Origin: an uncultured Nitrososphaerota archaeon | Lineage (GTDB): Archaea > Asgardarchaeota > Njordarchaeia > Njordarchaeales > Njordarchaeaceae | Direction: 5' to 3' | DNA: 23,254 nt | Assembly: GCA_964518475.1 (NCBI GenBank) | Contig: CAZFGR010000006.1 | Coordinates: 1 to 23,254, forward strand | The notes under the pieces: model-generated | Told to the model about the DNA's origin: nothing | The model's database searches: none | What the model saw: only the letters and a program-made list of their open reading frames with translations | Part shown: piece by piece, positions 510 to 18,727 of the stretch | How positions within the stretch are numbered: position 1 is the first letter of the stretch | Layout: each line of letters opens with the position of its first letter | Position numbers and translations under genes: made by a program

Positions 510-837
510 GATAAAACACCACATATATGCGTCTTGATCATTAGCATACATATGCATAATAAAAGGTTTTTTCTTCGTTATTGAGATATACAATCATTAA
601 CAAATATTATCATTTATTATCATATTATCATAAAAAGTAACGGTCTCCTACCATACGTAAGTCCACAATTTGCTCTTATAGAAGATAATCAAAGGGGGTT
701 CAGTTTTCTTAAACTTAGAGAATACTTTTAGTATGAATTGCTCAGTAAGATTAATTTTGTTAACTCGAGTTATAAGAGCGTTTCAAGAAATCCTTTAATT
801 ACTCCCTGGTAAAGTAGTAATGAGGAGGTTTTTTGTC

Positions 838-2805
838 TTGGATCCTTTGAAAGTATATTTGGATAATATAAGAGGTATATTAGAGAGAATTCTCGCTGAG
901 GAAGTAAATAACATCAAACAGGCAGCCTCTATAATTGCTGATGCCATAATTAGTGATCGTTTAATACATGTTTTCGGCACTGGTCATTCAATGATTCTTG
1001 CTGAAGAAATGTTTCTGCGGGCGGGTGGCTTAGTTCCTATCAATGCGTTACTTGATAAAAACTTTTCAATAATGTCGGGTGTGGCTTCAACAATTAATGA
1101 AAGAACACCGGGTCTTGCTAAGAAGCTATTAGCTGAGTATAATCTCCAAGAGGGTGATATTCTTATAATCGCTTCTGTATCCGGTATCAATGCTGTACCA
1201 GTAGAGTTAGCTGTTGAAGCTAGAAAAAGAGGGCTTAAAGTGATTTCTATAACATCTGTTGAGGCATCTAAAAATCTTCAGCCTAGGAATCCACTTAATA
1301 AACGTCTTTTCGAAGTATCCGACGTAACAATTGACAATAAGGTGCCGCTTGGGGATGCTCTCGTAGCTCTACCCGGTTTGAAACAAAAGGTTGCACCAGC
1401 ATCCACCATCGCGGGTGCTTTTATAATCAATTGTATAGTGATAGAGACTGCCCGTTTGCTTCTAGAGAAAGGAGTTGAACCGCCCATCTGGGTAAGCGGC
1501 AACGTTCCTGAGAGTGATGAAATAAACAAGAGGTACATTGATAAGTTGGTAGGGAGAGTAGCTCATCTAGGGATAGAGGCTCTACTACGTGGTATCGGGG
1601 AAAAGAAGGTCGAAGTTCCCGAGAAAGTTGAGGGTGGAGAAGTTTCAAAGCTCATCATTTATGGCGATATCGTTACTCCGTACACCAATATTAGGAATGG
1701 TTTGATTGTTGTAGAGAATGGAAAAATAACTTACGTTGGAGAAGAGGAAAAAAGTCTAGAGAAAAAAGATTATACTGTACTTGATTTCACGGATCACTAT
1801 ATAGTTCCCGGCTTCATAGATATTCACGTCCATGGATGCGAGGGTGCTAATGCGTTTGACGGCTCTCCACAATCCCTTAAGGCTATGGCTTATAATCTGG
1901 CAAAACACGGTGTAACAGCTTTCTTACCGACCGCTGGAACTCTCCCTAAAGATATGTTGATAAAAATAGCTTCAACAGTTAGCGAAGTTATGGCAAGTGA
2001 TTATGTGGGGGCTGAAATTTCTGGACTAAACATTGAGGGGCCTTTTCTTAATCCAGAGAAAAAAGGTGCTATGATTGTTGGATTCATGAGAAAACCTAAC
2101 ATTGAAGAAGCGAGAGAGATTTTAGAAGCGAGTAAAGGATCTCTCAAAATAATGACTATTGCTCCCGAGTTGGAAGGTGCGTTAGAGATTATTAGATGGT
2201 TAGCGTTGCATAATGTAGTCCCATCAATCGGTCACTCGAATGCCTCTTATGAGGAGGCTGTGAATGCTATTAATAACGGGGCTAGACTAGTCACTCATTT
2301 ATTCAATGCCATGAGAAGTTTTCATCATCGAGACCCAGGAGTAATAGGTGCTGCACTTGCCAGAGAAGATGTACTAGTCGAGATTATTGCGGATGGTATA
2401 CATGTTGATCCCTCCGCGGTAAAATTCGTAATCAACGCTAAGGGAGCGGATAGAGTAATAATAGTCTCTGATGCCACTCCCCTCGCTGGACTTCCTGATG
2501 GGGAATATACCTTCCCCGGATTCCCAAAAATAACTGTTAAGAACGGGAAAGCCACGCTTCCAGACGGCACTATCGCTGGTAGCACTTTAACACTTGACGA
2601 AGCTTTAAAGAATCTTATTAAGTGGGGTATCCCACTAACTCACGCTCTGAAAATGCTGTCCACGAATGCTGCTAAGTTACTAGGTCTTAAAAAAGGAGTT
2701 ATTAAAGCGGGTTACGATGCCGATCTAGTAATCCTAGACAAGAACCTCAACGTAGTATCAACAATTGTTAATGGAGAAGTCGTATACGAGAAAAAATTTA
2801 GCTAA
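838..2805 (+). CDS. nagA: Fusion: SIS-domain phosphosugar-binding protein (UPF0309/COG4821-like) + N-acetylglucosamine-6-phosphate deacetylase
   Basis: N-terminal SIS motifs HVFGTGHS..AEE..RAGGL, SVSGINAVPVE, DVTIDN, PIWVSGN. From about nt 1651, NagA motifs PGFIDIHVHG, EGPFL, GHSNA, THLFNAM, IADGIH, VSDA, AGS, GYDADLV. The longest ORF starts at 820, but GAGGAGGT (822-829) favours TTG at 838. Confidence 0.9.
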   Translation: MDPLKVYLDNIRGILERILAEEVNNIKQAASIIADAIISDRLIHVFGTGHSMILAEEMFLRAGGLVPINALLDKNFSIMSGVASTINERTPGLAKKLLAEYNLQEGDILIIASVSGINAVPVELAVEARKRGLKVISITSVEASKNLQPRNPLNKRLFEVSDVTIDNKVPLGDALVALPGLKQKVAPASTIAGAFIINCIVIETARLLLEKGVEPPIWVSGNVPESDEINKRYIDKLVGRVAHLGIEALLRGIGEKKVEVPEKVEGGEVSKLIIYGDIVTPYTNIRNGLIVVENGKITYVGEEEKSLEKKDYTVLDFTDHYIVPGFIDIHVHGCEGANAFDGSPQSLKAMAYNLAKHGVTAFLPTAGTLPKDMLIKIASTVSEVMASDYVGAEISGLNIEGPFLNPEKKGAMIVGFMRKPNIEEAREILEASKGSLKIMTIAPELEGALEIIRWLALHNVVPSIGHSNASYEEAVNAINNGARLVTHLFNAMRSFHHRDPGVIGAALAREDVLVEIIADGIHVDPSAVKFVINAKGADRVIIVSDATPLAGLPDGEYTFPGFPKITVKNGKATLPDGTIAGSTLTLDEALKNLIKWGIPLTHALKMLSTNAAKLLGLKKGVIKAGYDADLVILDKNLNVVSTIVNGEVVYEKKFS

Positions 2806-3280
2806 TCTTTTTCAATAATTCTTCAACTCTAATTTCTTTTGGCTTCATAGAGGCCATTTGTTGGTAAACAATTTTTATCCCAAGATCGCTCAAAGTCTTT
2901 AATGCTTCTATGTCTTCTCGCAAAACGCTGATTGTTTTCTCGATTCTTATTCTTCCCTCTTTATAACCCATTTGCCCGAGAATTATTCTATCAACTTTTA
3001 GTCCCGCTTTTATAAGCTCGAGCGCGTCTCTTGGAGAGGCTACAAGTATTAACGTTTTTTCAGTCGGTTGTTTCTGGCCTAGCTCTTTAATCGCTTCTTC
3101 CAATCTTAGAATCTTGACATTAATTCCGGGGGGAGCAGAGCTTTTCTGGATCATACTAAGAAACTCGTCATTTGCTATTTCATCACTTACCACCCAGATT
3201 TCCCTTATTTTGAATGCTCTAACCCAGCTAACAGTCACTTGACCGTGAATATATCTATCATCTACTCTCAGGATAACCAT
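2798..3280 (-). CDS. PTS mannose/sorbose/fructose family IIB component
   Basis: LRVDDRYIHGQV matches the RxDxRxxHGQV phospho-His motif. 160 aa, GGTGA SD upstream of the ATG. Confidence 0.95.
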   Translation of the reverse strand: MVILRVDDRYIHGQVTVSWVRAFKIREIWVVSDEIANDEFLSMIQKSSAPPGINVKILRLEEAIKELGQKQPTEKTLILVASPRDALELIKAGLKVDRIILGQMGYKEGRIRIEKTISVLREDIEALKTLSDLGIKIVYQQMASMKPKEIRVEELLKKIS

Positions 3281-3308
3281 TAATAATCACCAAAAAATAG
3301 GAAAAAGT

Positions 3309-4913
3309 TTAGGAGGAGGGGATTTCTACATAACCTACGGCACCTAGTATGCCTAGGGCTCCAAGTATGAATCCTATTGCGAATAGTACTACTAATACAT
3401 AATAGATCTTGAAACCCTTGCTATACAGATACTCTGCTAGGAGTGTTAAGCCCAGACCTATTAACGCGCTCACGAAGAGCGTTAACGAGAATATTCCTAG
3501 GGACGCATCAATAGTTGCCAGTACTTCAGCTCCCACAACTGGTCTTACTTGGAATACTATAGGAATTATTGCTCCGACGCTGAATATAGCTAATGTCTCA
3601 GCGAACTCTCTTATACTGCGCATTCTTTCTTCGGAGAAAACTTTTACAAGAGACAATCCTCTATTGTAGCCGAAGTCAAAGCTCTTAAACCTTATCGTGA
3701 AAGTGACTATGTCGAATGCTATGATGAAGATTAATGGCGCCCAGACGAGACCCCCGTTAATTAGCGTAATCGCTAGGATTAATAGAACCCCACCCGTAGC
3801 TAACCATATGACGCTATCTCCGAAACCAGCTAGTGGACCCATTAGACCTATCTTCAGTTTTCGTATGAAGTCTAGATCCCCCCTTCTTGTATTCTCTATA
3901 GCACCGTCAAGCCCTACTACCATAGGAGCTAGCACGGGGTTTGTGTTGAAGAACTCTAGGTGCGCTTTAGCTGCGTTTTTTAATTCATCTCCCTTGTATA
4001 TATGTTTCAGAATTGGTAGAATGCTGAAGAGGTATCCCAGACCTTGCATTAGTTCATAATTCCAGGAGGATTCAAAGAAGAGAACTGATCGTAGTTTAGA
4101 GCTTCTAAGAATTTCTTTAGGAAGACCTACTCCTTCGCTACCTTCACCACCTTCTATCTTTAATGCTCCTCTATATTTGTACCAAATGATGATAAAACCA
4201 GCAATTATAACAATGGCGAATGTAAAGGAGATGTTGATGAGGCTGACTAGGAGAAAAGCTATAATAAAGTACCACTTGTATCTACCAAGACCTAGATAGG
4301 TTAAAATGAGACCCAGACCCATGGCTGGTAGTACGGCACCAGCAACCGCTAATCCGTCAAGTACCCACTTAGGCAGAGACTCAAGAAAAGTCTTTAGAGC
4401 CTCCCCACCTAACGCGGTAACAATAAACACTGCTATAGCTACGGCTACCCCTCTGAAAAGCCCCAGTATAGGCATCCCCATTAAATGCCACTTATCGATC
4501 TCATCTATCTCGCCTTCTTCGATTAACTTATCTACCCTATGAACCAAGCTGATATTAACTGTTCTACCAATTATGTCAAAGTACATTCCCAAAATTCCGG
4601 CTGGCAATGCTAACACAATTGCTACCATAGGGTCTAAGCCAGCTATAGAGGAGAGAACCACAGCCGTTATCGCGACCATACCAAAGTCTGGGGGTACTGC
4701 TCCGCCCATTGGAACAGCTCCAAGCGCTATGAGCTGAGTAATTGCACCAATAGTCGCTCCTAATGCTACGTTTCCTAAGAGAATGCCAGCGAAGAAACCC
4801 GATAGTAGTGGTAGGATGCCAATCACTATCTTTGGTCCATACGCATCCATTGTAGCTAGAAACTCATAAATAAAGAAGATTATTGCGAGTACTAACGCCG
4901 TCTGGAGAGACAT
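3309..4913 (-). CDS. PTS mannose-family permease, fused IIC-IID (paralogue 1)
   Basis: IIC motifs GGAVPPD and GAVLPAMG. IID motifs SWNYELMQ, HLEFFNTNP, LMGPLAGFGD. Multiple TM segments. GGAGGT SD favours ATG at 4913 (ORF track starts at 4928). Confidence 0.93.
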   Translation of the reverse strand: MSLQTALVLAIIFFIYEFLATMDAYGPKIVIGILPLLSGFFAGILLGNVALGATIGAITQLIALGAVPMGGAVPPDFGMVAITAVVLSSIAGLDPMVAIVLALPAGILGMYFDIIGRTVNISLVHRVDKLIEEGEIDEIDKWHLMGMPILGLFRGVAVAIAVFIVTALGGEALKTFLESLPKWVLDGLAVAGAVLPAMGLGLILTYLGLGRYKWYFIIAFLLVSLINISFTFAIVIIAGFIIIWYKYRGALKIEGGEGSEGVGLPKEILRSSKLRSVLFFESSWNYELMQGLGYLFSILPILKHIYKGDELKNAAKAHLEFFNTNPVLAPMVVGLDGAIENTRRGDLDFIRKLKIGLMGPLAGFGDSVIWLATGGVLLILAITLINGGLVWAPLIFIIAFDIVTFTIRFKSFDFGYNRGLSLVKVFSEERMRSIREFAETLAIFSVGAIIPIVFQVRPVVGAEVLATIDASLGIFSLTLFVSALIGLGLTLLAEYLYSKGFKIYYVLVVLFAIGFILGALGILGAVGYVEIPSS

Positions 4914-5005
4914 TAGAATAACCTCCAAAAACTTTCAACATATCCCAATTCTTTTAATATTTTTTAAACTTGCTGACGTATATAGTACAGGGGAAAAACT
5001 AAAGG

Positions 5006-5455
5006 GTGACACCCTTGGAAAAAACGGAGAATGCTAGAAAATTCGCTAACAAGAGAAAAATCCCAATACTAATTGTTGGTCATGGAGATTTTGGCCACGC
5101 TCTTTTAAGCGCCGCCGAGATGATGACTGGGCCTAATGAAAACCTAGAGGTAATTAGTCTAGAGCTCGGGGAATCTATAGATTCTCTCTATTCTAAAATA
5201 AAAAATGCTTTGGATAGGTATGGAGGGGGAGCATTAATACTCATTGATGTCTTCGGGGGATCCCCCGCTTATGCTGTTGCGAAGCTTCTTAGGGAATATA
5301 GGGAGGTTGAAGCGATAGCGGGCGCTAACCTCCCAATGCTATTAGAGGCCCTGATTTCACGAGAAGAAGCTGGATCTCCTCATGAACTCGCAGATTTAAT
5401 AAGTAATATTGGGAGGGAAAGTATAATAAATATTCGTAAGAGACTTAGGCTTTAG
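5006..5455 (+). CDS. PTS mannose/sorbose/fructose family IIA component
   Basis: ILIVGHG (phospho-His), DVFGGSP, GANLPMLLE. Alternative start TTG at 5015 after GGTGA. Confidence 0.93.
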   Translation: MTPLEKTENARKFANKRKIPILIVGHGDFGHALLSAAEMMTGPNENLEVISLELGESIDSLYSKIKNALDRYGGGALILIDVFGGSPAYAVAKLLREYREVEAIAGANLPMLLEALISREEAGSPHELADLISNIGRESIINIRKRLRL

Positions 5456-6083
5456 ATGGTAAGTATTTCCTAACAAAACGCCATACGAAAGATTCCACAT
5501 CGCCCAAAACTAGTTCCTCAACAAAGATTCTTTCGAGCTCATCATCTGAAAAACATCTTCTAACTTTTTCCAACGAATCCAATCTCTTCAAAATCTTTCG
5601 CGCCGAAACTCTCGGCACTATAGTTTTTAGACTCGGTAAAAACTCTACTAAGAAGTCCTCATCACTTATAGACTCAAGAATCTTTGCTACCTCCTTTTCA
5701 ATAACCTCTTTGACCACGATTTTTAATTGCTCCCTAGAAACCTTCTCAAGCAATAGATACAGCTCAGCTATACATTCAATCTCATCTATCGAACCTCTCT
5801 CCAAAACCCCAGTCTTTACAAGTTCCCTTAAGGCATTAAGCAATGCATCAAAGCCCGCTCTGGAAATTTTTATTACAATAAAAGATGGCTCCCCAGGAAC
5901 TAGAATAATATATTCCCCCTCTCTACTCTCTTTATATACTAGTTTAAGAGCACCAGTTTCCTTATCAGGGACTATCTCAACTGAGTCTTGTACCCGTTTT
6001 CTCTCCAAAAATGTTTGACGCCCCAGACCTTTAAACGTGCTATTTAGTTTAAATACCCGCTTTATCATTTCTATCAATCTCAT
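5445..6083 (-). CDS. Hypothetical protein
   Basis: 212-aa ORF with host-like E/K/L-rich composition, filling the gap downstream of the metallophosphoesterase. No motif recognised; start uncertain. Confidence 0.65.
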   Translation of the reverse strand: MRLIEMIKRVFKLNSTFKGLGRQTFLERKRVQDSVEIVPDKETGALKLVYKESREGEYIILVPGEPSFIVIKISRAGFDALLNALRELVKTGVLERGSIDEIECIAELYLLLEKVSREQLKIVVKEVIEKEVAKILESISDEDFLVEFLPSLKTIVPRVSARKILKRLDSLEKVRRCFSDDELERIFVEELVLGDVESFVWRFVRKYLPSKA

Positions 6084-6837
6084 CAGCTAATTCTTCGAGG
6101 ATCCTATAATAGCTTCTCTTAACGTTTCTAACATAATTGTATCCATAGATTATTCTCCATTCATTTTCAACGTCTATGCCGGGAGGAACCGTTATTATTT
6201 CGCATTCAAGCCTTTTAGTATCTATTATTCCAGCAGAACCAAGGAATCCCATACCAGGATTAAAACATATTGTATCTCCTTTTCTCTCGATCCAAGGAAC
6301 ATGCATATGACCGCATACATGGATTCTAGGGGATGAGACAATGTGTAGAAGATATAAGATTTCTTTTCCACCTCGTTTCCCACTGGTATACGGGATAATA
6401 TCAGCACAACGCTTAGCACACTCATGAGTTACCAGAATATCCACTCTCTCTTCTTTCCTGCATATTTTGTTAGCAAGCCTCAGAACCTCAGCTACGGAGA
6501 ATCTATGCATATCTGAGGTTTTAGGAGAATAGACACCTCCTAGCCCGGCTATAACTATTTTTTCACCATCTATATTGAGGGTTACTACATCGTTTACTAA
6601 GAGGTATATATTCTCTAGAGAAGCTGCGATCTTCCTAAAACATGGTACGCAATCATGGTTTCCAGGGACAATGATTATTGGATTCCTGATGCTCTTAAGT
6701 AATTTAACGAAACGAGAGCACCTAAACTCGCATATATCTCCCGAGAGAATTAATAGGTCAAAATCCGTAGCTTTTAGCAATTTCTGAAACGCTAGTGAAT
6801 TATCATGAATATCTGAGATTACTAGAGCTCGTGCCAT
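6049..6837 (-). CDS. Calcineurin-like metallophosphoesterase
   Basis: All five motifs present: SDIH, SGDI, PGNHD, VTH, GHMH. GGAGGT SD. Confidence 0.9.
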   Translation of the reverse strand: MARALVISDIHDNSLAFQKLLKATDFDLLILSGDICEFRCSRFVKLLKSIRNPIIIVPGNHDCVPCFRKIAASLENIYLLVNDVVTLNIDGEKIVIAGLGGVYSPKTSDMHRFSVAEVLRLANKICRKEERVDILVTHECAKRCADIIPYTSGKRGGKEILYLLHIVSSPRIHVCGHMHVPWIERKGDTICFNPGMGFLGSAGIIDTKRLECEIITVPPGIDVENEWRIIYGYNYVRNVKRSYYRILEELADEIDRNDKAGI

Positions 6838-6921
6838 TTTGACCTCCGTTCCGCAATAATTTTATCTCCTCTTTCGTTGGTTAATACAAAAATCCATATT
6901 CTATATAATGGTGGTTAAAAT

Positions 6922-7743
6922 ATGCTATTAGATAGCATTTTTAAAGCAATCACACTCTTAGGAGACGAAATTTTCCTCCTCATTGTTTTACCTATAGTGT
7001 TTTTCGCAAGAAGGAGAAATGGTTTAAAACTAGCAATCAGTGTGTTAATAAGCGTCTATATCGCACATTTGCTGAAACCAATATTCCGCATCCCGAGACC
7101 TTCAAGGGAACGCTGGAAAGTTACAGCCTCAGGTTACAGCTTCCCTAGCGGACATGCCACAAATTCCATGGCCTTTTGGGGATACGCTGCATACCTGACC
7201 CGAAAAAGATCTGTTTTATCGACCTTGCTTATCATTGTAGCACTCATGGTCGGTTATTCAAGAGTCTATCTAGGGGTTCATTGGTGGACTGATGTAATTG
7301 CTGGATGGATTCTCGGAGCGGTTGTTTTCATCATTATTGAAATCGTCGACGAGAGATGTAGTAGTATCATACAAAACATAAGTTATGAAGAAAAGCTCTT
7401 TCTCAGTATGGTAATTCCTATGGGACTTATTCTAGCGAGTATGGCATTGATAGGGGTCAACGTATCGGAGTTTCAGACGATTCTCAAGGTTTTAAGTACT
7501 TTGTCTGGAATGCTAGCTGGATATGTTATAGCGGATAAGCGAAAACTATTATTAGCTGATACTAACAATATCAAAACGATCCTGATAAGGAGCTTGATTG
7601 GATTATTACTAGTTATCGCTCTTTACATAATATACGAAATGCTTAAGGCATTAACAATATTCATTATAATTCCCACATTCTGGTTAATCGGGGTCTCAGT
7701 AACACTCTTCACTCCCTACATTATGTCGCAATTGACTAAATAA
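6922..7743 (+). CDS. PAP2-family membrane phosphatase
   Basis: KxxxxxPRP (KPIFRIPRP), SFPSGH, SRVYLGVHWWTDV. Multiple TM helices. GGTGG SD. Confidence 0.92.
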   Translation: MLLDSIFKAITLLGDEIFLLIVLPIVFFARRRNGLKLAISVLISVYIAHLLKPIFRIPRPSRERWKVTASGYSFPSGHATNSMAFWGYAAYLTRKRSVLSTLLIIVALMVGYSRVYLGVHWWTDVIAGWILGAVVFIIIEIVDERCSSIIQNISYEEKLFLSMVIPMGLILASMALIGVNVSEFQTILKVLSTLSGMLAGYVIADKRKLLLADTNNIKTILIRSLIGLLLVIALYIIYEMLKALTIFIIIPTFWLIGVSVTLFTPYIMSQLTK

Positions 7744-7773
7744 TTTCTTCGGCAATTCCACTATTATTTTTTC

Positions 7774-8439
7774 TTAGAGTAGATCTGTGAAAACTTCACG
7801 AATAGTTCTTGCTAATAGCGTTTTAGGGAGAATAACAGGCTTTCCAGATCTATTCCTTAGGACTTTTTTATGAGTTAATTTGTAACCTATACAGTCGAGA
7901 ATAATAAGATCAACGTCCTTGAACTTATTTGCAATTGATAAAAGATTCTCTTTTTTTCCAGAATATGGTGAGAATGCTTCTGCAACAACCTCACCTATGC
8001 CTGACCATTTTTCGACAGCCATATCTATTTGCTCCCTCAGAGGAACTAACACACCAATCTTTTCAATACCTTCAAATGACGTAACTAAGCCTCTCATTAG
8101 ATAATATGGTCTCAAGAAAAATTTAGTAGAAGCGAGCTCGGGAAACTCATCTGTGCAAAGGAGAACTAATACATCGTTCTCTTTTTCACATTCTCTGATA
8201 AGATCTTTTAGCCGAGCAATCACCTTCTCCCTATCTAATCTTACCTCTTTTCCATTCCTAAGCTTTGATACTAAGACGTCACTTCCCATAGGTAATAGCT
8301 TCTTCATTATCTCCTCTTCCGTCATGTTATCTAGCACACCTCTTTGTCTAATGTCGATTCCCGCTAATAGTGGATAAATCTCAAGCAGTACGTCATCGCG
8401 TGGGGATTGACCAATTGTTATAAAGCATACTTTCACCAT
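7774..8439 (-). CDS. AroM-family protein
   Basis: TIGQSPRDD, VSKLRNG, LLCT, SPY and LDCIGY motifs. About 220 aa, GGAGG SD. Confidence 0.88.
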   Translation of the reverse strand: MVKVCFITIGQSPRDDVLLEIYPLLAGIDIRQRGVLDNMTEEEIMKKLLPMGSDVLVSKLRNGKEVRLDREKVIARLKDLIRECEKENDVLVLLCTDEFPELASTKFFLRPYYLMRGLVTSFEGIEKIGVLVPLREQIDMAVEKWSGIGEVVAEAFSPYSGKKENLLSIANKFKDVDLIILDCIGYKLTHKKVLRNRSGKPVILPKTLLARTIREVFTDLL

Positions 8440-8453
8440 TTTTCTTCCTCCAC

Positions 8454-8480
8454 AAGAAGAAAGAAGAAAAAGAAGAAGAA
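8454..8480 (-). terminator. Pyrimidine/oligo-T tract after the aminopeptidase stop (possible archaeal terminator)
   Basis: Minus strand reads TTCTTCTTCTTTTTCTTCTTTCTTCTT immediately after the stop codon and just before the AroM SD. Confidence 0.45.
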
Positions 8481-10985
8481 TTATAGTTTTGTTTCTAGTC
8501 TAGCTAAACGATCCAGTAATCTTCTGTTTTCTTCCTTAATCTTCTCGATTTCTTCCCTTAATAGTTTGTATTCAACACCCTTCTCTAATGCTCTCCTAAT
8601 CTTTGTTGCTACTTCTCTGGCTCTTCTTCTCAATCCATCACTCAAGTCCTCTGAAGCGATCCTATCCAGCATTGGAAGAAGCTTCGGTGACATCAGCTCG
8701 GCAGCAGCCGCTATTGCTGCTCCTCGAATCCTGCTATTCTCATCCTTACTTGCTTCGAGAATAATATCGATAGCCTCCCTCTTCTCTGGGAATTTTGCCA
8801 TCGCTATTATGGCTGCTATCCTAACGAAAGTAGGCTTTCCTAGTTTCGTGTATTCCTTAATCACCTTAAATGCTTCTTCGGTTCCTAGTTCTGCTAATCC
8901 TCTTATCGCACCTATAGTTATTACGTCATTGTGCGAGGGTGCATCAATGTGTTTAACGAGATAATCATGGGCTTTCTCCCATCTCGTTTTTCCTAAGCTT
9001 TCAGCCGCTTCTGCTCTTACATAATAACTCTCTTCCGAGTTCTCGAGAACCTCGCTTAGGGCTTTAGCTGCTCTTTCATCTCTGAAATTACCTAGTGCCT
9101 TCACTATTCCCCTTCGGATCCTTGGATGCTTAACAGTTTTTATACACTCTAGTAAGGCTAGTAAGGCTTCTTCTGTACCTATCTTTCCTAGAGATAGTGC
9201 TGCCTCATAACTTACGCCCCAGAACTCATCATGTATCACAGCATTTTTCAACGCCTCAACTACTTTAGAACTTCTAAATTTCGCCAATGCACGAGCCGCT
9301 AAGACTCTACAATAGACGTGCTCACATTTTAGCTGGCGTATCCATTGTTCTGGTCCCTGATCGATCTTAAGTACCGCGAAGACTTTGAACTCAGGATCAA
9401 AACATACCTGTTCGGGCTTCTCGTCTAGTGAAATGTAAAATACTTGTTCTTTTCTCTCTATCCAGAAATTGTATTTTCTTGACCCATTCTTTGTTGCAAC
9501 TCTTATCTCGAGAGGGAGTTTGTACTCATCCCAGCTATCCTCTTTCTGGACTTGCCGTACACTTATTTTTAGTTGCTTTGACTCTGGGTCGTACTTGTAG
9601 TTTATGGCGAGCTCTGGATGCCCCGCATTATAAACGTACTGGTCAAAGAACCACTCAAAGTCCTTGCCCGTGACTTCTTCGACTACTTTTCGGAAATCTT
9701 CCGTATCAGCGTTTGAGAATTTGTATTTCTCTAAAAATCTCTTCAGTATAGTGCGGAATGTTTCCTCACCAACTAGGTTATTTAATGTGTGCAATACTAA
9801 TGCTCCCTTGGGATAACTATGCCTATCAAAGACCTCTGAAGGGTATTTGAATAACCGAGTGACTATTGGGCGTGCGTATCTCGTACTATATTCTCGGAGA
9901 TAAGCATCGAGATCTTCTATAAGCCTATATACGAATTCATCGTTTCCTTTCCAGTGTCTCCTATATACTGCTTCCAAGTACGTAGCGAAGGATTCATTGA
10001 TCCAAATGTTAGCCCAATCCTTTGTAGTGACCAAGTCACCAAACCATTGGTGAGCTGCCTCATGAGCAACTAAAGGCTCGCTTTCGAAATCCATGTGAGC
10101 TTTCTCATCATGTAATGTCCTATCTGTTAAGATTGTTAGGGTAGTATTCTCCATACCTCCAGCAACGAACTCGCTTACGCATACTTGCGCGTATTTATTC
10201 CAGGGGTATGGTACGCCAAGATACTCGCTAAAGAATTTTATCATATCAGGTGTTCTCGCAAAGCTTCTCTTTATATCGTCTTTTCTCCCCTTAGGCACAT
10301 AGTATTGGAGCGGGATCCCATCTACAGTTTCTTCTTCATAATCGAAGAGACCTATAGCCACCGCTATAAGGTACGTGGAGTGGGGTTTATCCATTAGCCA
10401 ATGCCAACGCTTCCAATCTCCTTCTTCTTGAACAGAAAGTAACTTTCCATTCGAAACAACAGTAAATTCCTTTGGAGCAATGATTATTAGCTCAGACGTG
10501 CACTTCATATTCGGATAGTCGTAGAGAGGAATCCAATACCTATTATCCTCGCTCTCCCCCTGAGACCATACCTGTGGAACCCGATTGGGATAGTACTTAT
10601 CTGGGAGAACAAAGTATAATCCCTTCTTAGGTCTGGCCCCATAATCGATCGTTATCTCTACTATATCTCCTCGCGACAACTTTTTAGGTAGGATAACTCT
10701 TAAAGCGTATCCATCATAATCATAGTCTACTGCTTGATCATTCATTTTTACCGATTTTATCGACATATCCACGGCGTCTAATTCAACGTTGCTTAGTCCA
10801 TTTTTTAAACTCTTGAGCCTTAGGGTTGCTTTTCCTTCAATTCTCTTCTCGAACACATATACCTTGATTTCAGCTTTCACATGCTCAAGCTTATAATCTG
10901 GGCTCCTTGGATAATTCGGTTTATAATCTGGAAAAGCGAAATCACGACCATGCTTAACAATATGCAATCCGAAAACACCTTCCAA
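8481..10985 (-). CDS. M1-family zinc aminopeptidase with C-terminal HEAT repeats and coiled-coil tail
   Basis: GGMEN, HEAAH-x18-E (WINES), YPKGA. HEAT-like repeats (AARALAK, AALSLGK, AAESLGK). Alternative start TTG at 10967 after AGGTG. Confidence 0.93.
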   Translation of the reverse strand: MEGVFGLHIVKHGRDFAFPDYKPNYPRSPDYKLEHVKAEIKVYVFEKRIEGKATLRLKSLKNGLSNVELDAVDMSIKSVKMNDQAVDYDYDGYALRVILPKKLSRGDIVEITIDYGARPKKGLYFVLPDKYYPNRVPQVWSQGESEDNRYWIPLYDYPNMKCTSELIIIAPKEFTVVSNGKLLSVQEEGDWKRWHWLMDKPHSTYLIAVAIGLFDYEEETVDGIPLQYYVPKGRKDDIKRSFARTPDMIKFFSEYLGVPYPWNKYAQVCVSEFVAGGMENTTLTILTDRTLHDEKAHMDFESEPLVAHEAAHQWFGDLVTTKDWANIWINESFATYLEAVYRRHWKGNDEFVYRLIEDLDAYLREYSTRYARPIVTRLFKYPSEVFDRHSYPKGALVLHTLNNLVGEETFRTILKRFLEKYKFSNADTEDFRKVVEEVTGKDFEWFFDQYVYNAGHPELAINYKYDPESKQLKISVRQVQKEDSWDEYKLPLEIRVATKNGSRKYNFWIERKEQVFYISLDEKPEQVCFDPEFKVFAVLKIDQGPEQWIRQLKCEHVYCRVLAARALAKFRSSKVVEALKNAVIHDEFWGVSYEAALSLGKIGTEEALLALLECIKTVKHPRIRRGIVKALGNFRDERAAKALSEVLENSEESYYVRAEAAESLGKTRWEKAHDYLVKHIDAPSHNDVITIGAIRGLAELGTEEAFKVIKEYTKLGKPTFVRIAAIIAMAKFPEKREAIDIILEASKDENSRIRGAAIAAAAELMSPKLLPMLDRIASEDLSDGLRRRAREVATKIRRALEKGVEYKLLREEIEKIKEENRRLLDRLARLETKL

Positions 10986-11147
10986 AAAGAGTCACTGTAT
11001 AGCTGAAAAATTCAGCTAATAAATATAGTGAAAATACTACAGTTTCTTTGTTCTTCATCTCAAATAAACTATTCTCTAATTTTCAGTAATATTGATTACT
11101 TCACAAAACAATGATCTCATAATTAATTCCTACTTATTTCGCATGCT

Positions 11148-12536
11148 TTACCAGCCGTAAATTTCGGGCCCCCAGTCTCTTATCTCTAATTCTTGCTTAG
11201 GAAGAATTAGTTTTCTTGGAGGTACGTCCTTATAAACGATTACTCCTGGACCGACTATGCTATAGGGACCTATCCTAACACCAGGCATTATCATTGAGTT
11301 TACGCCTGTTCTACAATAATCCCCAATATATGCAGCAGAAGCTATTCTGGGCGGGAATTCCCTTCTTTTACGAATCCTCATTCTTGGAGGATTATCATCA
11401 AATCTAAGATTTCCGACAACAGTGCCCGCGGCTATATCTGTGAACCGTCCTATTACCCCATAAATCATTGCGTGATGCATCACAGATACGCCATCCATGA
11501 TTACTCCTTCAACTTCCGCTAGGTGGAGAATTCTCGTACGCTTGCCTATAGATGTCTGAGGCCAGATCTTGCAGTATTCTCCGATCCTAGCGTAATCTCC
11601 AATAACGACGTTTTCCCCAATTATGCAGTGTTCTATATTTGCATTAGCTCCTATAAACGCATTTCCTCTAATAACTGTGTTTGGGCCTATCTTACTGTTT
11701 TTTCCAATAACTATGTGACCATATATCTCTGCCCGCTCCGAAACTTCTGCTTCGGGATCTATTAGATCCTTCTCTAATCGTTCCCCAATATATTTTAGGT
11801 ATTCCTTGTTCGCTTCTAGAATATGCCATGGTTTATCCACATCAACAATAAAGTTGGAGGGTTCTACGGCTAAGATTTCCTCCCCATCATCTATCATCAT
11901 TGCCATGCTTTCTTCTAGGAAGTATTCTTTCGGAGGCATTACCCCCACTGGTATGTGGGACATGAATTCTGGAGTTATTTCGAGGTAGGGGATTATTTTC
12001 TCTGATAAAACATATATCCCCACTAACCTATGAGAAACACTGTGTCTGGGATGAGCAATAATTTGTTCAATTCTCTTCTCTCTAACCCTACAGCAGATCC
12101 AATCGTTGGGTCTTTCACGATTTAGTTTAGTAGCGAGAACAACACATTCTCCCCGTCTCTTTGATGCTTCATTCAAGATTATTTCATAATTCTCCTTCGC
12201 GGAAACAATGTCTCCATATACTACTAACCAACGATCCTCAATATCCTTCCTTACCTCTTCTAAAGCAGTCTTTAATGCATGCGCAGTACCCAGCGGCTTA
12301 TTCTGAATTATGAATTCAACCTCCTCTAGTCCTCTGAGGTCCTTCTTGATCTGGGAATGCTCTGGCGGAACAATCAGATAGATATTATTAATACTAAATT
12401 GCTTAACCGTTTCCACTATATGTCTTATAATTGGCTTATTACCGATAGGAATCGAAGGTTTTGGTAATGTTTCAGTGAAAGGCTTCAGTTTCTCACCAAT
12501 TCCAGCTGCAAGAATAAAAGCAGACTCTATTCTCAA
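11148..12536 (-). CDS. Sugar-1-phosphate nucleotidyltransferase with left-handed beta-helix domain (archaeal GlmU-like, divergent)
   Basis: ILAAGxGxKLxP..PKP, QxxPLGTAHA, YGD, DVDKPWHILEAN, hexapeptide repeats, AGT..GNLRFDD, GVNS.I.PG. GGTGG SD favours TTG at 12536 (ORF track 12566). Confidence 0.85.
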   Translation of the reverse strand: MRIESAFILAAGIGEKLKPFTETLPKPSIPIGNKPIIRHIVETVKQFSINNIYLIVPPEHSQIKKDLRGLEEVEFIIQNKPLGTAHALKTALEEVRKDIEDRWLVVYGDIVSAKENYEIILNEASKRRGECVVLATKLNRERPNDWICCRVREKRIEQIIAHPRHSVSHRLVGIYVLSEKIIPYLEITPEFMSHIPVGVMPPKEYFLEESMAMMIDDGEEILAVEPSNFIVDVDKPWHILEANKEYLKYIGERLEKDLIDPEAEVSERAEIYGHIVIGKNSKIGPNTVIRGNAFIGANANIEHCIIGENVVIGDYARIGEYCKIWPQTSIGKRTRILHLAEVEGVIMDGVSVMHHAMIYGVIGRFTDIAAGTVVGNLRFDDNPPRMRIRKRREFPPRIASAAYIGDYCRTGVNSMIMPGVRIGPYSIVGPGVIVYKDVPPRKLILPKQELEIRDWGPEIYGW

Positions 12537-12588
12537 TCCCAAACCACCGCGAAAATAAATCATCACTTAAAAAGTGTAAAAATAGCTT

Positions 12589-14226
12589 TTAAGTTGATAC
12601 GGCTACTTGACCTATCGTACCCACTAAACCAATGGTACCGAGAATGAATCCTATGGCAAATAGGAGAAGAAATAGCCTCGTTGGTCCATAACCTTTTCCA
12701 TACAGATTCTTCATCAGTAATGTTAGGATAAGCATTATCGATGCTCCGAGGAACTGATTTATAGAGATTATAGCTAGTTTCGCCTCGATTCTTGCGAGGA
12801 ACGTGGCTAGTGGAACAACTCTAATAGCTGTTATAAATGGTATTGTTGCTCCAATGCTCACAATAGATAACCATTCAAAGATCTCTCTCAGGGATTGTAT
12901 TTTCTCACCAGAGAAACTTTCAGTGATCCTCATACCTCTTTTGTAACCAAACTCACTCCCTATTACCCTGAACGGGATGAATATGGCGTCAAATACTATC
13001 AGAATTATCAAAGGGGCGAGCGCGTACAGAGGCCGCTCTAAGGACATAAGAGATAATGTTGACCCCATTATCAGCAAAATCCCGCCAATGACGAAGAATA
13101 TTAGACTATCTCCTATACCCGCAAACGCACCCATAAGTCCTGTTTTTAAACTTCTTACTAGTTCAAAATTTCTAGGAGAACTCTCTTCTATTGCTACGTT
13201 GACACCGACGAGGATAGGAGCCAGAAACGGATTAGTATTAAAGAACTCCAAATGAATCTTAGCGGCTCTTTTCAACAATTCATTATCTCTATATATTCTT
13301 TTTAGAGCTGGGAGGATAGAGAATAAATAACCAAGAGCCTGCATCCTCTCATAATTCCAAGAACATTCAAGGAAGAATCCTGATCTTATAGCAATTTTCC
13401 TTAACAATGATCTGTCCAATCGTCCTTTACCTTCTCCTAGTGAGCTTACAGATCCTTTAGCGTATTTGCGTAGTCGTACCCAAGCAACAACGCTTGCAAT
13501 CACTATCAGAATCGTGAAGACTACTGTGATATCAATTATTACAATAAGAGAGACTATCAAGAAAGGGATCAGGAGAAGATGATATCTCCTCGCTACCCCT
13601 ATGTAGCTAAGAAGAATCCCTAGCCCTAATGCTGGTAGAACAGCTCCTGCCACACTCAAGCTCCTCAAGAACCAGACTGGAAGGGTCTCCAAAACACTCT
13701 TTAGAACATCAATTCCCCACTTTAATACGATATATGCTGAGATACCATATAATGCTCCTCTAAATCCCGCCAACGGTAACAATCCCAAGAAATGTAATCG
13801 ACCAACACTATCTATTTGGCCCATGTCGATTAAGGATTCGGCTTTTCTGATTAGAGAAACATTTATTGTCCTAGCTAATATCTCCAAATACATCATTACT
13901 ATCCCAGCCGGTATGAGAGAGAGCACGACTAACGGTAACATCGATAAGTCTAGTCCCCCATATATGAAGACGGCAGCAGTTATTGCTGCTACAATAGCGA
14001 AATCCGGCGGCACAGCTCCTCCTATCTCTATTAATCCAAGAGACAATAGTTGAATATAGGCACCAATATACGCTCCTAAAGCTATATTGCCCAATAATAA
14101 TCCAACAAAAAAGCCAGTTATCAATGGCATTATCCCTAGTAAACTCTTTATACTATAATTGTCGATCCCTGTAATAATCCCCCAAATCACTAGGATAGCT
14201 ACTACACAAGAGATGCTCATACCCAT
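12589..14226 (-). CDS. PTS mannose-family permease, fused IIC-IID (paralogue 2)
   Basis: GGAVPPD, GAVLPALG, SWNYERMQ, HLEFFNTNP, LMGAFAGIGD. GGAGTG SD before ATG at 14226 (ORF track 14235). Confidence 0.92.
   Translation of the reverse strand: MGMSISCVVAILVIWGIITGIDNYSIKSLLGIMPLITGFFVGLLLGNIALGAYIGAYIQLLSLGLIEIGGAVPPDFAIVAAITAAVFIYGGLDLSMLPLVVLSLIPAGIVMMYLEILARTINVSLIRKAESLIDMGQIDSVGRLHFLGLLPLAGFRGALYGISAYIVLKWGIDVLKSVLETLPVWFLRSLSVAGAVLPALGLGILLSYIGVARRYHLLLIPFLIVSLIVIIDITVVFTILIVIASVVAWVRLRKYAKGSVSSLGEGKGRLDRSLLRKIAIRSGFFLECSWNYERMQALGYLFSILPALKRIYRDNELLKRAAKIHLEFFNTNPFLAPILVGVNVAIEESSPRNFELVRSLKTGLMGAFAGIGDSLIFFVIGGILLIMGSTLSLMSLERPLYALAPLIILIVFDAIFIPFRVIGSEFGYKRGMRITESFSGEKIQSLREIFEWLSIVSIGATIPFITAIRVVPLATFLARIEAKLAIISINQFLGASIMLILTLLMKNLYGKGYGPTRLFLLLFAIGFILGTIGLVGTIGQVAVST
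13183..13365. repeat. 183-bp perfect direct repeat, copy 1 (inside permease paralogue 2)
   Basis: Base-by-base identical to 14958-15140 (offset 1775). The flanking bases differ on both sides. Confidence 0.95.
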
Positions 14227-14384
14227 AATAATCACTCCGGCAACGAAGAGGAATGGTCACAATGATTCGTAATATTTCACAAAAATAAATCTTTCTAGAA
14301 CTTTTGTGATAATTCTTCAGAAATAAGACCCTATCATAAAATTTTGCTCAATTTCTTAGGTAAGGTTTTAGGTGAGAACATATT

Positions 14385-16004
14385 TTAGATAGGTGTAGTT
14401 AATATTCCCAATGCTCCAAGCAAAAAACCTATCAGGAAAATCATTAACAATGAGAACAGGATACCATACCACCCATACAACTTTTTCATGAGTAGTAAAG
14501 CTAATAGGGAGATCACACCGCTGATGAATTTGTTAATAGAGATAATAGTAGAGATAAACTTTATTTCCATGGCCATATGCGAAAGTGAAGAGACCCTAAG
14601 ATGAGATATTACTGGAATCAAAGCCCCCATAGTTAATAATGAGAGTTGCTCAAAAGCATCTTTCAGTTTCTTTATTTTCTCTTTCGCTAAGAAGTCAATA
14701 ATTTTCAGCCCACCTTTATAACCTAGCTCACTCCCTTTAAGTTTGAAGGGAATAAATACACTATCAAAAATGAGAATAACTATTAATGGCACATACGCAT
14801 ACAGAGGATTAACCATGCTTTGAAGAGATAAAACCGAGCCCATCACAAGCAAGATTCCCCCAACAGAGAATATTACTAAGCCATCACCGATGCCCATAAA
14901 TGCTCCCATTAATCCTCTTCTTAGACTCCTTATCAACTCGAAGTTCCCTAAATTCCGCTCTTCTATTGCTACGTTGACACCGACGAGGATAGGAGCCAGA
15001 AACGGATTAGTATTAAAGAACTCCAAATGAATCTTAGCGGCTCTTTTCAACAATTCATTATCTCTATATATTCTTTTTAGAGCTGGGAGGATAGAGAATA
15101 AATAACCAAGAGCCTGCATCCTCTCATAATTCCAAGAACACTGGAGAAGAAAACCTGATCTGAACGTCACCGCTCGCAATATTTTTTTGCCAAGCTTCCC
15201 TAGTTCTTGATCATTATAGATTAGGGATCCTATTTCGAACTCTCCCTTAGCCCACAGCCAAGCAACCCTTACCAGAATCACAATCAGTACCGCCAAAGCT
15301 ATCAACGAATCACTTACGGTTAATAAAGCAGATAGTGTGAAGGATGCGAGGAGAATATGGTATTTCTTTTCATAACTCATGTACGTGAGAAGAATACTGA
15401 ATCCGAGAAGAGGCAATAATTCCCCAACCACTTTTAGTCCCCCAAAGAACCACGTAGGCGCCTCTCTTACCAAGTCACGCAGCGCATTAATACCCCATCT
15501 CAACATTATGTAAGCCCCTATAACATGCAGAAACCCCCGAACACCCGCTAATGGAAGCAGTCCTAAGAAATGCCATTTAGAAATGTCGTCAAGTTTACCC
15601 TTGTCTATAGATTCTTCCGCTTTTTTTATCCACAAGGCATTAAAAGATCTTGCATAAACTTCTAAGTATTTCATTAATACTCCAAGCGGAATGAGAGAGA
15701 GGATAAATACAGGAATTAAATACGGATCTACCCCACCAACTATGATAGAAACAACAATAATCGCAGTTATAATCTCGAAATCTAATGGGACCTTTCCTCC
15801 TATCGGTACTAAACCAAGAGCCATTAATTGAAGATAAGCCCCTACATATGTACCAGTTATAGGATCTCCTAGAAGAATACCGATAAAGAAACCGGATATT
15901 AAAGGCACTACCCCACATAAGACTTGTGCACTATACAGATCCAGAGCTACAACTGTCCCCCATACTCCCAGTATTATCGCGATACATAATGGATCATAAA
16001 TCAT
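14385..16004 (-). CDS. PTS mannose-family permease, fused IIC-IID (paralogue 3, most divergent motifs)
   Basis: GGKVPLD, GELLPLLG, SWNYERMQ, HLEFFNTNP, LMGAFMGIGD. Likely ATG at 16004 after GAGG (ORF track 16043). Confidence 0.9.
   Translation of the reverse strand: MIYDPLCIAIILGVWGTVVALDLYSAQVLCGVVPLISGFFIGILLGDPITGTYVGAYLQLMALGLVPIGGKVPLDFEIITAIIVVSIIVGGVDPYLIPVFILSLIPLGVLMKYLEVYARSFNALWIKKAEESIDKGKLDDISKWHFLGLLPLAGVRGFLHVIGAYIMLRWGINALRDLVREAPTWFFGGLKVVGELLPLLGFSILLTYMSYEKKYHILLASFTLSALLTVSDSLIALAVLIVILVRVAWLWAKGEFEIGSLIYNDQELGKLGKKILRAVTFRSGFLLQCSWNYERMQALGYLFSILPALKRIYRDNELLKRAAKIHLEFFNTNPFLAPILVGVNVAIEERNLGNFELIRSLRRGLMGAFMGIGDGLVIFSVGGILLVMGSVLSLQSMVNPLYAYVPLIVILIFDSVFIPFKLKGSELGYKGGLKIIDFLAKEKIKKLKDAFEQLSLLTMGALIPVISHLRVSSLSHMAMEIKFISTIISINKFISGVISLLALLLMKKLYGWYGILFSLLMIFLIGFLLGALGILTTPI
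14958..15140. repeat. 183-bp perfect direct repeat, copy 2 (inside permease paralogue 3)
   Basis: Identical to 13183-13365. Encodes CSWNYERMQ...VNVAIEE. Confidence 0.95.
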
Positions 16005-16213
16005 AAAATCTGGCCTCTTAGGGAAATAACTACCGGATGGCAAGGCGCTTTAAAGACTAATTATCAAGTCGGTGATAATATTGTTATTAAATAGTTTCCC
16101 GAATAACATCTATAGGAGATCAATAGTTCTCAATATAATGGAGCTCACAATATATAGGAGAATATAGAATAGCTAGATGCATCACCTTAAACCAAAAAGC
16201 ACTAAAGCATATC

Positions 16214-16234: not shown

Positions 16235-17545
16235 TTATGAGCTCTCTTTCAATTTTTCTACGAAGTCTTCTGTTGCTTTAAGGAACCGTTCTACGTCATT
16301 TTCCGTGTGTGCAATGGATAAGAACAGATGGGGAGCGGAAGGAGAAAGGTATACGATCTTGTTATTCAGCATATGTCTGTGCAACCTCTTCATCGCGTCG
16401 ACGTCTTTTGTTTTTGAAATTTCCACTGGATCTAATTTTTTAGCTTTAGTGAAATGGATTCCTATCATCGATGATAAGCCCGTAACTAGGGCCTCTATAC
16501 CATAGTCTTGGAAGATGTTTTCGAGTCCTTTCATGAATTTTTCTCCCAGAGAGTCAAGGTATGGGAATATTTCATCCTTCTTTGTCTCAAGTTCTCTTAT
16601 TAGGGTATAGCCAGCTCTCATCGTTAATGCGTTTCCAGTATATGTACCTCCATGGAAAACTCTTTCCCAGAAATTCTTTCTCTTGGTATGATCAATGAGA
16701 TCCATTATTTCTTCAATTCCGCAGATCGCTCCTGCTCCAGGGAAATATTGCCCACCAACGGCTTTCCCAGTTGTTATAATATCTGGTTTCACACGGTAGT
16801 AGTGTTGAGCACCCTTGTAAAACCTGAACCCAGTAATTACTTCGTCAAATATTAGCACAATTCCTTTTTCATCACAGAGCTCTCTCAATCCTTTTAGGAA
16901 ATCTCTCTCAGCTGGAATAGCGCCTCCAGCACCAAGAACTGGCTCAACTATTATTGCTGCTAATTCCTCATTTTTCGCTTTCTCATAAACACCCTCAAGA
17001 TCATTATATGGAAGGACTATGATATCGTTCTGTACACAATCTGTTAAGCCGAGAGAAGCCGGCTTATCAAAGGGATACGCAACAGCCTTATGGAGACCAT
17101 CGTACCCACCATGCCATCCTCCAGCGAACTTTCCAATTTTTCTTCTTCCCGTATAAGCTCTAGCTAATCTAATTGCATACATATTAGCTTCTGTTCCACT
17201 ATTAGAGGGTCTCACTTTATCCATGTCAAACCATCTACAAACAGCCTCAGCCCATTTAATCTCCCACTCATTTGACCAACCAAAATGAATACCATACTCT
17301 AGCTGTTCCTTTACAGCCTCTATTATGGGCTCATAATTGTGCCCAAGAACAGCTGCACCATGAGCCATCCAGAAGTCTATATACTCGTTACCATCAACGT
17401 CCCAGACTCTACTCCCTTTAGCTCTTACAACGTAGAAAGGATAGGGTTCTATCCCCCTAATATAGTATGTTACGCCCCCTGGTAAATATTTTCTAGCTAA
17501 CTCGTATAATTCCTTAGATCGTTTGGTAAAATCCGTATACTCCAT
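16235..17545 (-). CDS. Class-III PLP aminotransferase, glutamate-1-semialdehyde aminomutase-like; substrate unknown
   Basis: WDVDGNEYID, NSGTEA..AIRLARAYTGR, GGWHG, IVEPV, FDEVITGFR, GKAVGG (PLP Lys), GTYTGN. Confidence 0.9.
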   Translation of the reverse strand: MEYTDFTKRSKELYELARKYLPGGVTYYIRGIEPYPFYVVRAKGSRVWDVDGNEYIDFWMAHGAAVLGHNYEPIIEAVKEQLEYGIHFGWSNEWEIKWAEAVCRWFDMDKVRPSNSGTEANMYAIRLARAYTGRRKIGKFAGGWHGGYDGLHKAVAYPFDKPASLGLTDCVQNDIIVLPYNDLEGVYEKAKNEELAAIIVEPVLGAGGAIPAERDFLKGLRELCDEKGIVLIFDEVITGFRFYKGAQHYYRVKPDIITTGKAVGGQYFPGAGAICGIEEIMDLIDHTKRKNFWERVFHGGTYTGNALTMRAGYTLIRELETKKDEIFPYLDSLGEKFMKGLENIFQDYGIEALVTGLSSMIGIHFTKAKKLDPVEISKTKDVDAMKRLHRHMLNNKIVYLSPSAPHLFLSIAHTENDVERFLKATEDFVEKLKESS

Positions 17546-17558
17546 ATGTAAACGCCCT

Positions 17559-18566: not shown

Positions 18567-18727
18567 AATGAACACCATAACAGATAGATACTCCAAGCCT
18601 TTTAAATCCGTAATATTTAACGGGAAATTGAAGAATCAGGGATTGGGTGGTTAATCTAAATTATGCGAGTCCAGGAAATGTGAGAAAAAGAGGAGGGATT
18701 TTCGAACAAATTGTCGCCTTTTAGTAT

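Follow-up and report, generated by a model that had tools for sequence, protein, structure and literature searches.

The window analyzed here, a stretch of 23,254 nucleotides at the start of scaffold C6 in the metagenome-assembled genome (MAG) of a member of the Njordarchaeales (G000), encodes a mannose-family (Man-family) phosphoenolpyruvate-dependent phosphotransferase system (PTS). One IIA protein and one IIB protein stand beside three permeases, each of which carries IIC and IID on a single chain. We think that this is probably the larger of two Man-family PTS loci in the genome and that permeases 2 and 3 are fed in trans by a shared IIA/IIB pair. An original prediction, made from the letters of the DNA, had proposed three paralogous IIC-IID fusions with one IIA and one IIB, and that gene count is borne out by Pfam profiles, by product lengths of 534 to 545 amino acids, and by intact motifs. 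The PTS genes and their closest associates are as follows.

820-2805, plus strand: fusion of SIS_2 and amidohydrolase (NagA), 661 amino acids (Pfam SIS_2 and Amidohydro_1)
2798-3280, minus strand: IIB of the sorbose/mannose subfamily (PTSIIB_sorb; PF03830, E 1.8e-42)
3309-4928, minus strand: fused IIC-IID permease 1 (PF03609 and PF03613)
5006-5455, plus strand: IIA-Man (PF03610, EIIA-man, E 1.6e-22)
11148-12566, minus strand: GlmU-like sugar-1-phosphate nucleotidylyltransferase/acetyltransferase (Pfam NTP_transferase and Hexapep)
12589-14235, minus strand: fused IIC-IID permease 2 (PF03609 and PF03613)
13249-13289, minus strand: patch of 41 nucleotides in permease 2 that resembles permease 3 (comparison with assembly L110)
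14385-16043, minus strand: fused IIC-IID permease 3 (PF03609 and PF03613)

Each permease open reading frame (ORF) has an EII-Sor (IIC) domain in its N-terminal half and an EIID-AGA (IID) domain in its C-terminal half, in one frame and without internal stops. The IID halves scored 164 to 194 bits and the IIC halves 115 to 162 bits, against Pfam cut-offs of 25 to 26; the NCBIfam subfamily models also match, yet below their cut-offs. Translation probably starts at ATG 4913 in permease 1 (preceded by GGAGGT; 534 amino acids), at ATG 14226 in permease 2 (545 amino acids), and at ATG 16004 in permease 3 (539 amino acids). The IIB gene lies 28 nucleotides downstream of permease 1 on the same strand, and the IIA gene is divergent from both. 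Permease 2 has no adjoining IIA or IIB, and Pfam scans of the window found no IIA or IIB beyond the single pair. The IIA phosphohistidine motif is intact (IVGHGDFG, with GHG), as is the IIB active-site motif RVDDRYIHGQV, which includes the phosphohistidine and is invariant across the alignment. IIB is predicted to be the phosphohistidine donor to the sugar, with phosphorylation on histidine and not on cysteine. A separate European Nucleotide Archive (ENA) assembly of the species (L110; contig of 86.8 kb) is 99.9% identical to the window and repeats its gene order, tandem pair of permeases 2 and 3 included, and therefore the arrangement is not a one-off assembly product. An ORF-calling or frameshift artifact was ruled out as the source of the fusion, as over 10 independent archaeal records, together with the two assemblies of the species, show the fused form in a single frame.

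The fold of the permeases is that of the Man family. The N-terminal half of permease 1 matches ManY chains, and its C-terminal half matches ManZ chains, in the PDB. An AlphaFold2 model of permease 2 reached a pLDDT of 90.8 and a pTM of 0.90, with lower confidence around residues 231 to 270 (block means of 64 to 78) and a disordered IIC-IID linker at about residues 260 to 274. A Foldseek search with the model gave significant matches solely to Man-PTS IID and IIC chains (TM 0.79 for the 6k1h IID chain). There were 24 alignment columns kept in at least 85% of 53 other fused homologs, and all of them are retained in permease 1, 23 of the 24 in permease 2, and 21 of the 24 in permease 3; the motifs SWNYERMQ, HLEFFNTNP, and GxGDS are also retained. 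Moreover, the IID domain PF03613 is unique to the mannose/fructose/sorbose PTS family. With PF03613 joined to PF03609, a ManY-ManZ fold, the histidines of IIA and IIB in place, and enzyme I (EI) and HPr encoded elsewhere in the genome, the system is a member of the mannose/fructose/sorbose-family PTS Enzyme II (TC 4.A.6). We conclude that the Man-family PTS in this Asgard archaeon is real and, so far as sequence can tell, apparently functional. A complex prediction for permease 2 with the window IIB scored 0.29 with the mark at 0.32 and is counted neither for nor against binding.

The PTS of the genome extends beyond the window. Profile searches of G000 found four IID domains, every one fused to IIC, with two IIB-Sor and two IIA-Man. 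One EI (591 amino acids, with the histidine motif SHFAIIAR and a CGE motif) and one HPr (GLHARPA) are both encoded on contig C2. The second Man-family locus lies on contig C4 (C4:57200-66300; L014:7213-16256), where genes for IIA and a HAD protein diverge from those for a fourth IICD, IIB, GFO/IDH/MocA, a small protein, and DUF7916; a divergent IIA is common to the C4 and window loci. At C4 of G000, vapC-like PIN, HAAS, and PadR genes are inserted between IIA and IICD. The original prediction of one IIA/IIB pair for three permeases thus stands within the window and gives way, across the genome, to four permeases and two pairs. Extra IIA/IIB genes elsewhere would speak against it, and the C4 pair does so in part, though that pair sits with its own permease. 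The three window permeases, as had also been proposed, are true paralogs, and numbers 2 and 3 lack an IIA or IIB of their own. We note that three contig ends (C23:1-1505, C73:3250-4413, and C2:3-158) each hold a part of an Enzyme II (EII) of the ascorbate/Ula family (IIA, IIC-GAT, and a IIB tail). It probably continues into a C2 cluster of DHDPS-like, creatininase, PTE, FAH, and SIS genes, followed by HPr.

How a permease might work without its own IIA and IIB is illuminated by sister species. Two IICD are found with one IIB and three IIA in G003, with one IIB and one IIA in both G004 and G005, and with two IIB and two IIA in G007, where the IIA beside the permease 1 ortholog is a pseudogene. 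The one IIB that each of G003, G004, and G005 has belongs to the C4-type locus, and the window-type permeases of these genomes are alone on contigs of 9.8 to 17 kb that carry neither IIA nor IIB. The neighbors of these lone permeases are an integrase, KaiC-like, clostripain-like, or PAP2 genes, or SIS-NagA only. The G007 pseudogene (L025:2474-2899, minus strand, the same as G007:C165:6652-7077), from the closest sister species, is interrupted by four in-frame stops within the IIA domain, or seven over the whole aligned stretch, and shares 50% identity with the window IIA; the adjoining IICD (81%), IIB (69%), and SIS-NagA (73%) are intact. Window-type IIA and IIB have thus been lost repeatedly while the permease was kept, and service in trans from the other IIA/IIB pair explains this best. 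The proposal that one relay serves several permeases therefore gains comparative support from the sister species, with the incompleteness of their MAGs (66 to 90% complete) as the main caveat.

We propose the following scheme by homology. Phosphoenolpyruvate would phosphorylate EI and EI would phosphorylate HPr, which would hand the phosphate to IIA-Man and then to IIB, and IIB would phosphorylate the sugar during its import by a trimeric, elevator-type IIC-IID permease. A protomer would be one polypeptide, with a ManY-like half, a linker of about 15 to 35 residues, and a ManZ-like half. Permease 1, IIB, IIA, and SIS-NagA would form a conserved module, and the imported N-acetyl-hexosamine would then be deacetylated and isomerized or deaminated. 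Permeases 2 and 3 would be served in trans by either the window IIA/IIB or the C4 pair, and such service would widen the range of related amino sugars taken up.

Three observations weigh against this scheme. First, the GlmU-like gene, the transaminase resembling glutamate-1-semialdehyde (GSA) aminomutase, and the Ord-like dehydrogenase found beside permeases 2 and 3 are not conserved beside members of the permease 2 clade elsewhere. Second, permease 3 is altered in the GLMGPxAGxGD motif and evolves about three times faster than permease 2, which could reflect either neofunctionalization or relaxed selection. Third, the MAG is 91% complete and the relatives 66 to 90%, such that IIA/IIB genes may have gone unassembled.

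Permeases 2 and/or 3 might instead not be PTS group translocators. They might be IIB-independent facilitators that act with a kinase, or redundant copies drifting to loss, in which case the orphans of the sister species would be what is left of a locus in decay. The locus type is indeed eroding in the genus, as seen in the G007 pseudogene and in the window-type loci of three species that lack IIB, permease 3 has a long branch and changes in 3 of the 24 conserved columns, and integrase genes lie beside orphan permeases in L026 and L108. Erosion, however, strikes IIA and IIB and spares the permeases, the opposite of what useless permeases would lead one to expect. Moreover, every orphan permease ORF is full length in all species seen, the three motifs given above are kept, and Pfam finds no sugar kinase linked to permeases 2 and 3 in the window. 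We consider a non-PTS role unlikely. With regard to the integrases, tyrosine recombinase (phage integrase family) genes at L026:9772-10737 and L108:8982-9941 are 0.2 to 7 kb from orphan window-type permeases, which hints that the orphan genes move as small cassettes.

Feeding in trans by a shared IIA/IIB pair might also be part of something broader. In Njordarchaeales, one or two IIA/IIB pairs could act as a hub for a changing set of orphan one-chain IICDs that are gained, duplicated, recombined, and possibly heterotrimeric, with IIB pairing promiscuously across paralogs less than 30 to 45% identical. The conversion-like patch in permease 2 would be a sign of such recombination. We regard so general an arrangement as distinctly improbable. 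If it were true, the arrangement would be undocumented for this PTS family, and it would occur in a lineage close to the eukaryotic stem.

A further alternative, raised in the original prediction, is that the three window paralogs, perhaps with the fourth permease, co-assemble into mixed trimers whose subunit mix sets specificity or regulation. Man-PTS permeases are trimers joined via Vmotif domains (PMC8021565). The paralogs reside in the same cell, and permease 2 adjoins permease 3, with which it shares 52% identity and, in a central stretch, 78% nucleotide identity. Elevator protomers are generally independent, however, so the gene set can be explained without mixing, identity among the three is just 37 to 52%, and sister species manage with one window-type permease. 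Mixed trimers are very unlikely to account for the locus. There is a similarly slim chance that the IIA/IIB shortage is an assembly artifact, with dedicated genes in the unassembled 9% or so or on lost short contigs: the genome is 91% complete in 121 contigs, and PTS genes do meet contig breaks, as in the ascorbate-family EII, but two assemblies run unbroken for about 8 kb to each side of permeases 2 and 3 without IIA or IIB, the 2:1 ratio is repeated in the MAGs of three other species, and Man-family IIA and IIB normally adjoin their permease, as they do at C4 and in the loci of relatives.

The cargo of the permeases may be read from neighboring metabolism. The SIS-NagA gene is convergent with the IIB gene, with overlapping ends, and its product scores above the NCBIfam cut-offs for both parts (350.6 bits against 225.65 for TIGR00221 nagA and 287.8 against 135 for NF002805 SIS). 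In L025, L026, and L108 the fusion adjoins a permease, as does its NagA part in the Baldrarchaeota locus L029. NagA is thereby associated with permease 1, with a member of the permease 2 clade (L108), and with the outgroups L029 and P0026. Because SIS-NagA accompanies both window-type lineages and a NagA-like gene accompanies the outgroups, an N-acetyl-hexosamine of the GlcNAc (N-acetylglucosamine) or GalNAc (N-acetylgalactosamine) type is the best guess, and most likely the cargo, for permease 1; the same cargo is suggested more weakly for permeases 2 and 3. The SIS-NagA fusion is predicted to catalyze the first catabolic steps on the sugar phosphate delivered by permease 1. A linkage of the nag/aga type, in which a permease is encoded with a NagA/AgaA deacetylase and an isomerase/deaminase, is present at the permease 1 locus, with SIS supplying the presumed isomerase/deaminase. 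The neighbors of permeases 2 and 3 are unconserved and therefore say little about cargo. The GlmU-like gene, for example, is 22 nucleotides downstream of permease 2, scores 232 bits for Arch_glmU (below the NCBIfam cut-off of 292), and is linked to permease 2 in this species only; it is possibly a link to amino-sugar salvage.

The archaeal origin of the DNA was upheld. The MAG comprises 2.33 Mb in 121 contigs (5.8% contamination) and contains no 16S rRNA gene. A bacterial contig was ruled out by orthologous, syntenic loci in five Njord-group MAGs, by a GC content of 37 to 43% that matches the rest of the MAG, and by an archaeal class-I CCA-adding enzyme encoded on scaffold C6 past a 100-N gap (C6:23255-23354) that directly follows the window. 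A scan of a genome collection placed orthologous loci in the Njordarchaeota MAGs B77_G9 and M288, in a Promethearchaeati MAG, and in Ca. Njordarchaeum guaymaensis, and the B77_G9 locus (L025) is syntenic with window positions 820-7743. Moreover, NCBI lists under "Candidatus Njordarchae..." a protein that shares at least 90% identity with permease 2. Only scaffolding links the window with the other 56 kb of C6; the longer ENA contig, which runs about 55 kb beyond the window end, in line with the size of the rest of the scaffold, appears to bridge the gap.

The phylogeny of the IIC-IID fusions separates the permeases of the genome into two groups. Trees were built with FastTree (132 rows) and with an IQ-TREE quick search under LG+G4 (53 rows), and their topologies agree. 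Permeases 1 to 3, which share 37 to 52% identity, fall in one clade with support of 100, in which all named members are from the Njord group and the remainder are metagenome proteins. The permease 1 lineage is represented in G000, B77_G9, M288, M2 bin245, and P0007, with orthologs 66 to 81% identical in four sister species, and the permease 2 lineage is represented twice in G000 and in N. guaymaensis and P0023; both window-type lineages and the tandem duplicate are held by G000 alone. The nearest outgroups of the clade are a Baldrarchaeota MAG, P0025, and P0026/P0011, and the contexts of P0025, P0026, and P0011 look archaeal (AFOR and KaiC-like ATPases), with NagA-like, IIB, and HPr genes also present. 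The fourth permease, from C4, is elsewhere in the tree as sister to Thermofilaceae/Desulfurococcales with support of 98, and the GFO, IIB, DUF7916, HAD, and IIA genes of its locus are common to loci of Thermofilum, Infirmifilum, and a Desulfurococcales MAG. Given these separate positions, the genus has acquired two different fused-permease loci. For C4, synteny and tree together imply that a whole locus would have been transferred between Thermoproteota and Njordarchaeales.

The fusion of IIC and IID is neither archaeal specific nor unusual. When permease 2 was used as the query of an exhaustive HMMER search, 2,654 relatives were recovered at E <= 0.001; of the 150 top-ranking cluster representatives, 86 have lengths of 480 to 620 amino acids, and most of the 86 align over both halves of the query. 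Single-ORF fusions are encoded in bacteria by Alicyclobacillus (three species), Bacillales/Bacillota MAGs, Clostridium oryzae, C. neuense, Leuconostoc fallax, and Enorma and in archaea by Thermofilum, Infirmifilum, a Desulfurococcales MAG, and a Baldrarchaeota MAG. Cbei2901 of C. beijerinckii was tabulated as "IICD" in 2010 (PMC3024867), and a 2026 review gives solely four-protein or IIAB-fused layouts (PMC13543919). The idea that the fusion is special or undescribed must be given up, as fused forms are found in several Bacillota, Actinomycetota, and Thermofilaceae. Fused forms are scattered among split forms in several separate positions of the trees, and thus fusion or fission arose more than once. 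Within the class, IID is confined to this genus (five of seven species genomes), and across the phylum it occurs in 7 of the 400 species genomes searched, namely, the five Njord genomes and two others. The sixth, probably a Baldrarchaeota MAG, has a fused ORF of 548 amino acids. The sole unfused IID among the 400 Asgard species genomes (G070:C329:7543-8310; L111) lies on a short contig from a MAG that is 7% contaminated and may itself be a bacterial contaminant.

The closest known archaeal systems are those of the Thermofilaceae, and a PTS has been reported for Thermofilum pendens (PMC2678158). Like the genome studied here, Thermofilaceae encode a fused IIC-IID (534 to 554 amino acids) with separate IIA and IIB, and their locus with GFO/IDH/MocA, DUF7916, and HAD equals the C4 locus gene for gene. 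The window permeases, in contrast, belong to another clade, whose closest relative with a name comes from a Baldrarchaeota MAG. The genes linked to the window locus are SIS-NagA and not GFO/DUF7916, and the genome has four permeases. The window permeases share two Pfam families, the fold, and the conserved IID motifs with E. coli ManXYZ/ManYZ (PDB 6K1H and 7DYR) and with the man-PTS of Listeria and Lactococcus, and the trimeric elevator mechanism of ManYZ (PMC8021565) is presumed for them. They differ in that identity is about 25 to 31%, the host is archaeal, and the cargo is probably an N-acetyl-amino sugar. Unlike in E. coli ManXYZ, IIC and IID form one chain, and IIA and IIB are separate proteins and not a ManX fusion.

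In the E. coli aga system for GalNAc and galactosamine (GalN), a single IIA (AgaF) serves two Man-family permease sets. The window system resembles aga as an amino-sugar Man-family PTS with a NagA-type deacetylase and an SIS-type isomerase and with a soluble phosphocarrier that would be shared by paralogous permeases. The aga permeases, however, each keep their own IIB and have IIC and IID as separate genes, whereas the window system would share IIB too, with orphan permeases that are 8 to 11 kb or a contig away from it. Natural one-gene IIC-IID proteins of 520 to 650 amino acids also occur in C. beijerinckii (Cbei2901-2903; IICD/IIB/IIA), Alicyclobacillus, C. oryzae and C. neuense, L. fallax, and Enorma. 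These bacterial fusions sit in clades apart from both archaeal groups, and for C. beijerinckii the listing pairs the fusion with a IIB and a IIA of its own.

A survey of Asgard transporters published in 2021 reports not one PTS protein (PMC7997004), and none of the papers searched links Njordarchaeales with a PTS. New are the lineage that hosts the system, its two separate acquisitions, the growth in permease number, and the sharing of IIB that this implies; the mechanism is standard, the one-chain type of permease was already known, and our understanding of how the PTS works is unchanged. One genus holds EI, HPr, an ascorbate-family EII, and up to four Man-family permeases, and amino-sugar scavenging is pointed to in the group. 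The two permease lineages, with their different nearest relatives in Thermofilaceae and Baldrarchaeota, indicate repeated transfer of whole PTS loci among anaerobic archaea. Thermofilaceae, Desulfurococcales, and Njordarchaeales are described as heat loving. One-chain permeases from likely thermophiles are attractive for structural study of IIB docking, which is unsettled in this family, and the natural permease-to-IIB ratios of 2:1 and 4:2 offer a test bed for the specificity of IIB-permease recognition.

Going by their sequences, permeases 2 and 3 arose by tandem duplication, at the level of the species, of the sister paralog of permease 1. They are sisters in the tree (SH-like support of 99) and are 52 to 53% identical, with an end branch of 0.65 to 0.68 for permease 3 versus 0.22 to 0.26 for permease 2. 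Over a central stretch of about 450 nucleotides, the two genes are 78% identical. The window differs from L110 at 19 positions, and 18 of the 19 are inside the patch at 13249-13289 in permease 2, where the window reads like permease 3 (counterpart at 15024-15064), unlike L110. Either the patch records gene conversion, with both versions circulating in the population, or the assembly has locally merged the tandem copies into a chimera.

Finally, we note other genes in the window. Between the IIA and GlmU-like genes, ORFs and Pfam matches indicate genes for a 212-amino-acid protein, a metallophosphoesterase, a PAP2 protein, AroM, and an M1 aminopeptidase with HEAT repeats. The 212-amino-acid protein (5445-6083, minus strand) had no match in Pfam, NCBIfam, or Atlas; its gene faces IIA in convergent orientation and has an overlap with the end of the metallophosphoesterase gene, and a 61% identical protein is encoded at the same position in a sister species. 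An Rfam scan of the window found no RNA family. Upstream of permease 3, Pfam identifies a class-III aminotransferase, the Ord-like dehydrogenase, an archaeal ATPase_2 protein, DtxR, and GNAT. The aminotransferase resembles the pyridoxal phosphate (PLP) enzyme glutamate-1-semialdehyde aminomutase, and the dehydrogenase resembles 2,4-diaminopentanoate dehydrogenase (16235-18596, minus strand); neither reaches its NCBIfam cut-off, and as a pair they look like part of a diamino acid pathway. They are separated from permease 3 by 191 nucleotides with an AT-rich, TATA-like stretch and may be unrelated to it. Upstream of the dehydrogenase-aminotransferase-permease 3/2 string, the gene at 18728-20458 (minus strand) encodes an ATPase_2/AAA_16 protein with a weak TrmB-like winged-helix tail, and its position makes it a candidate regulator.

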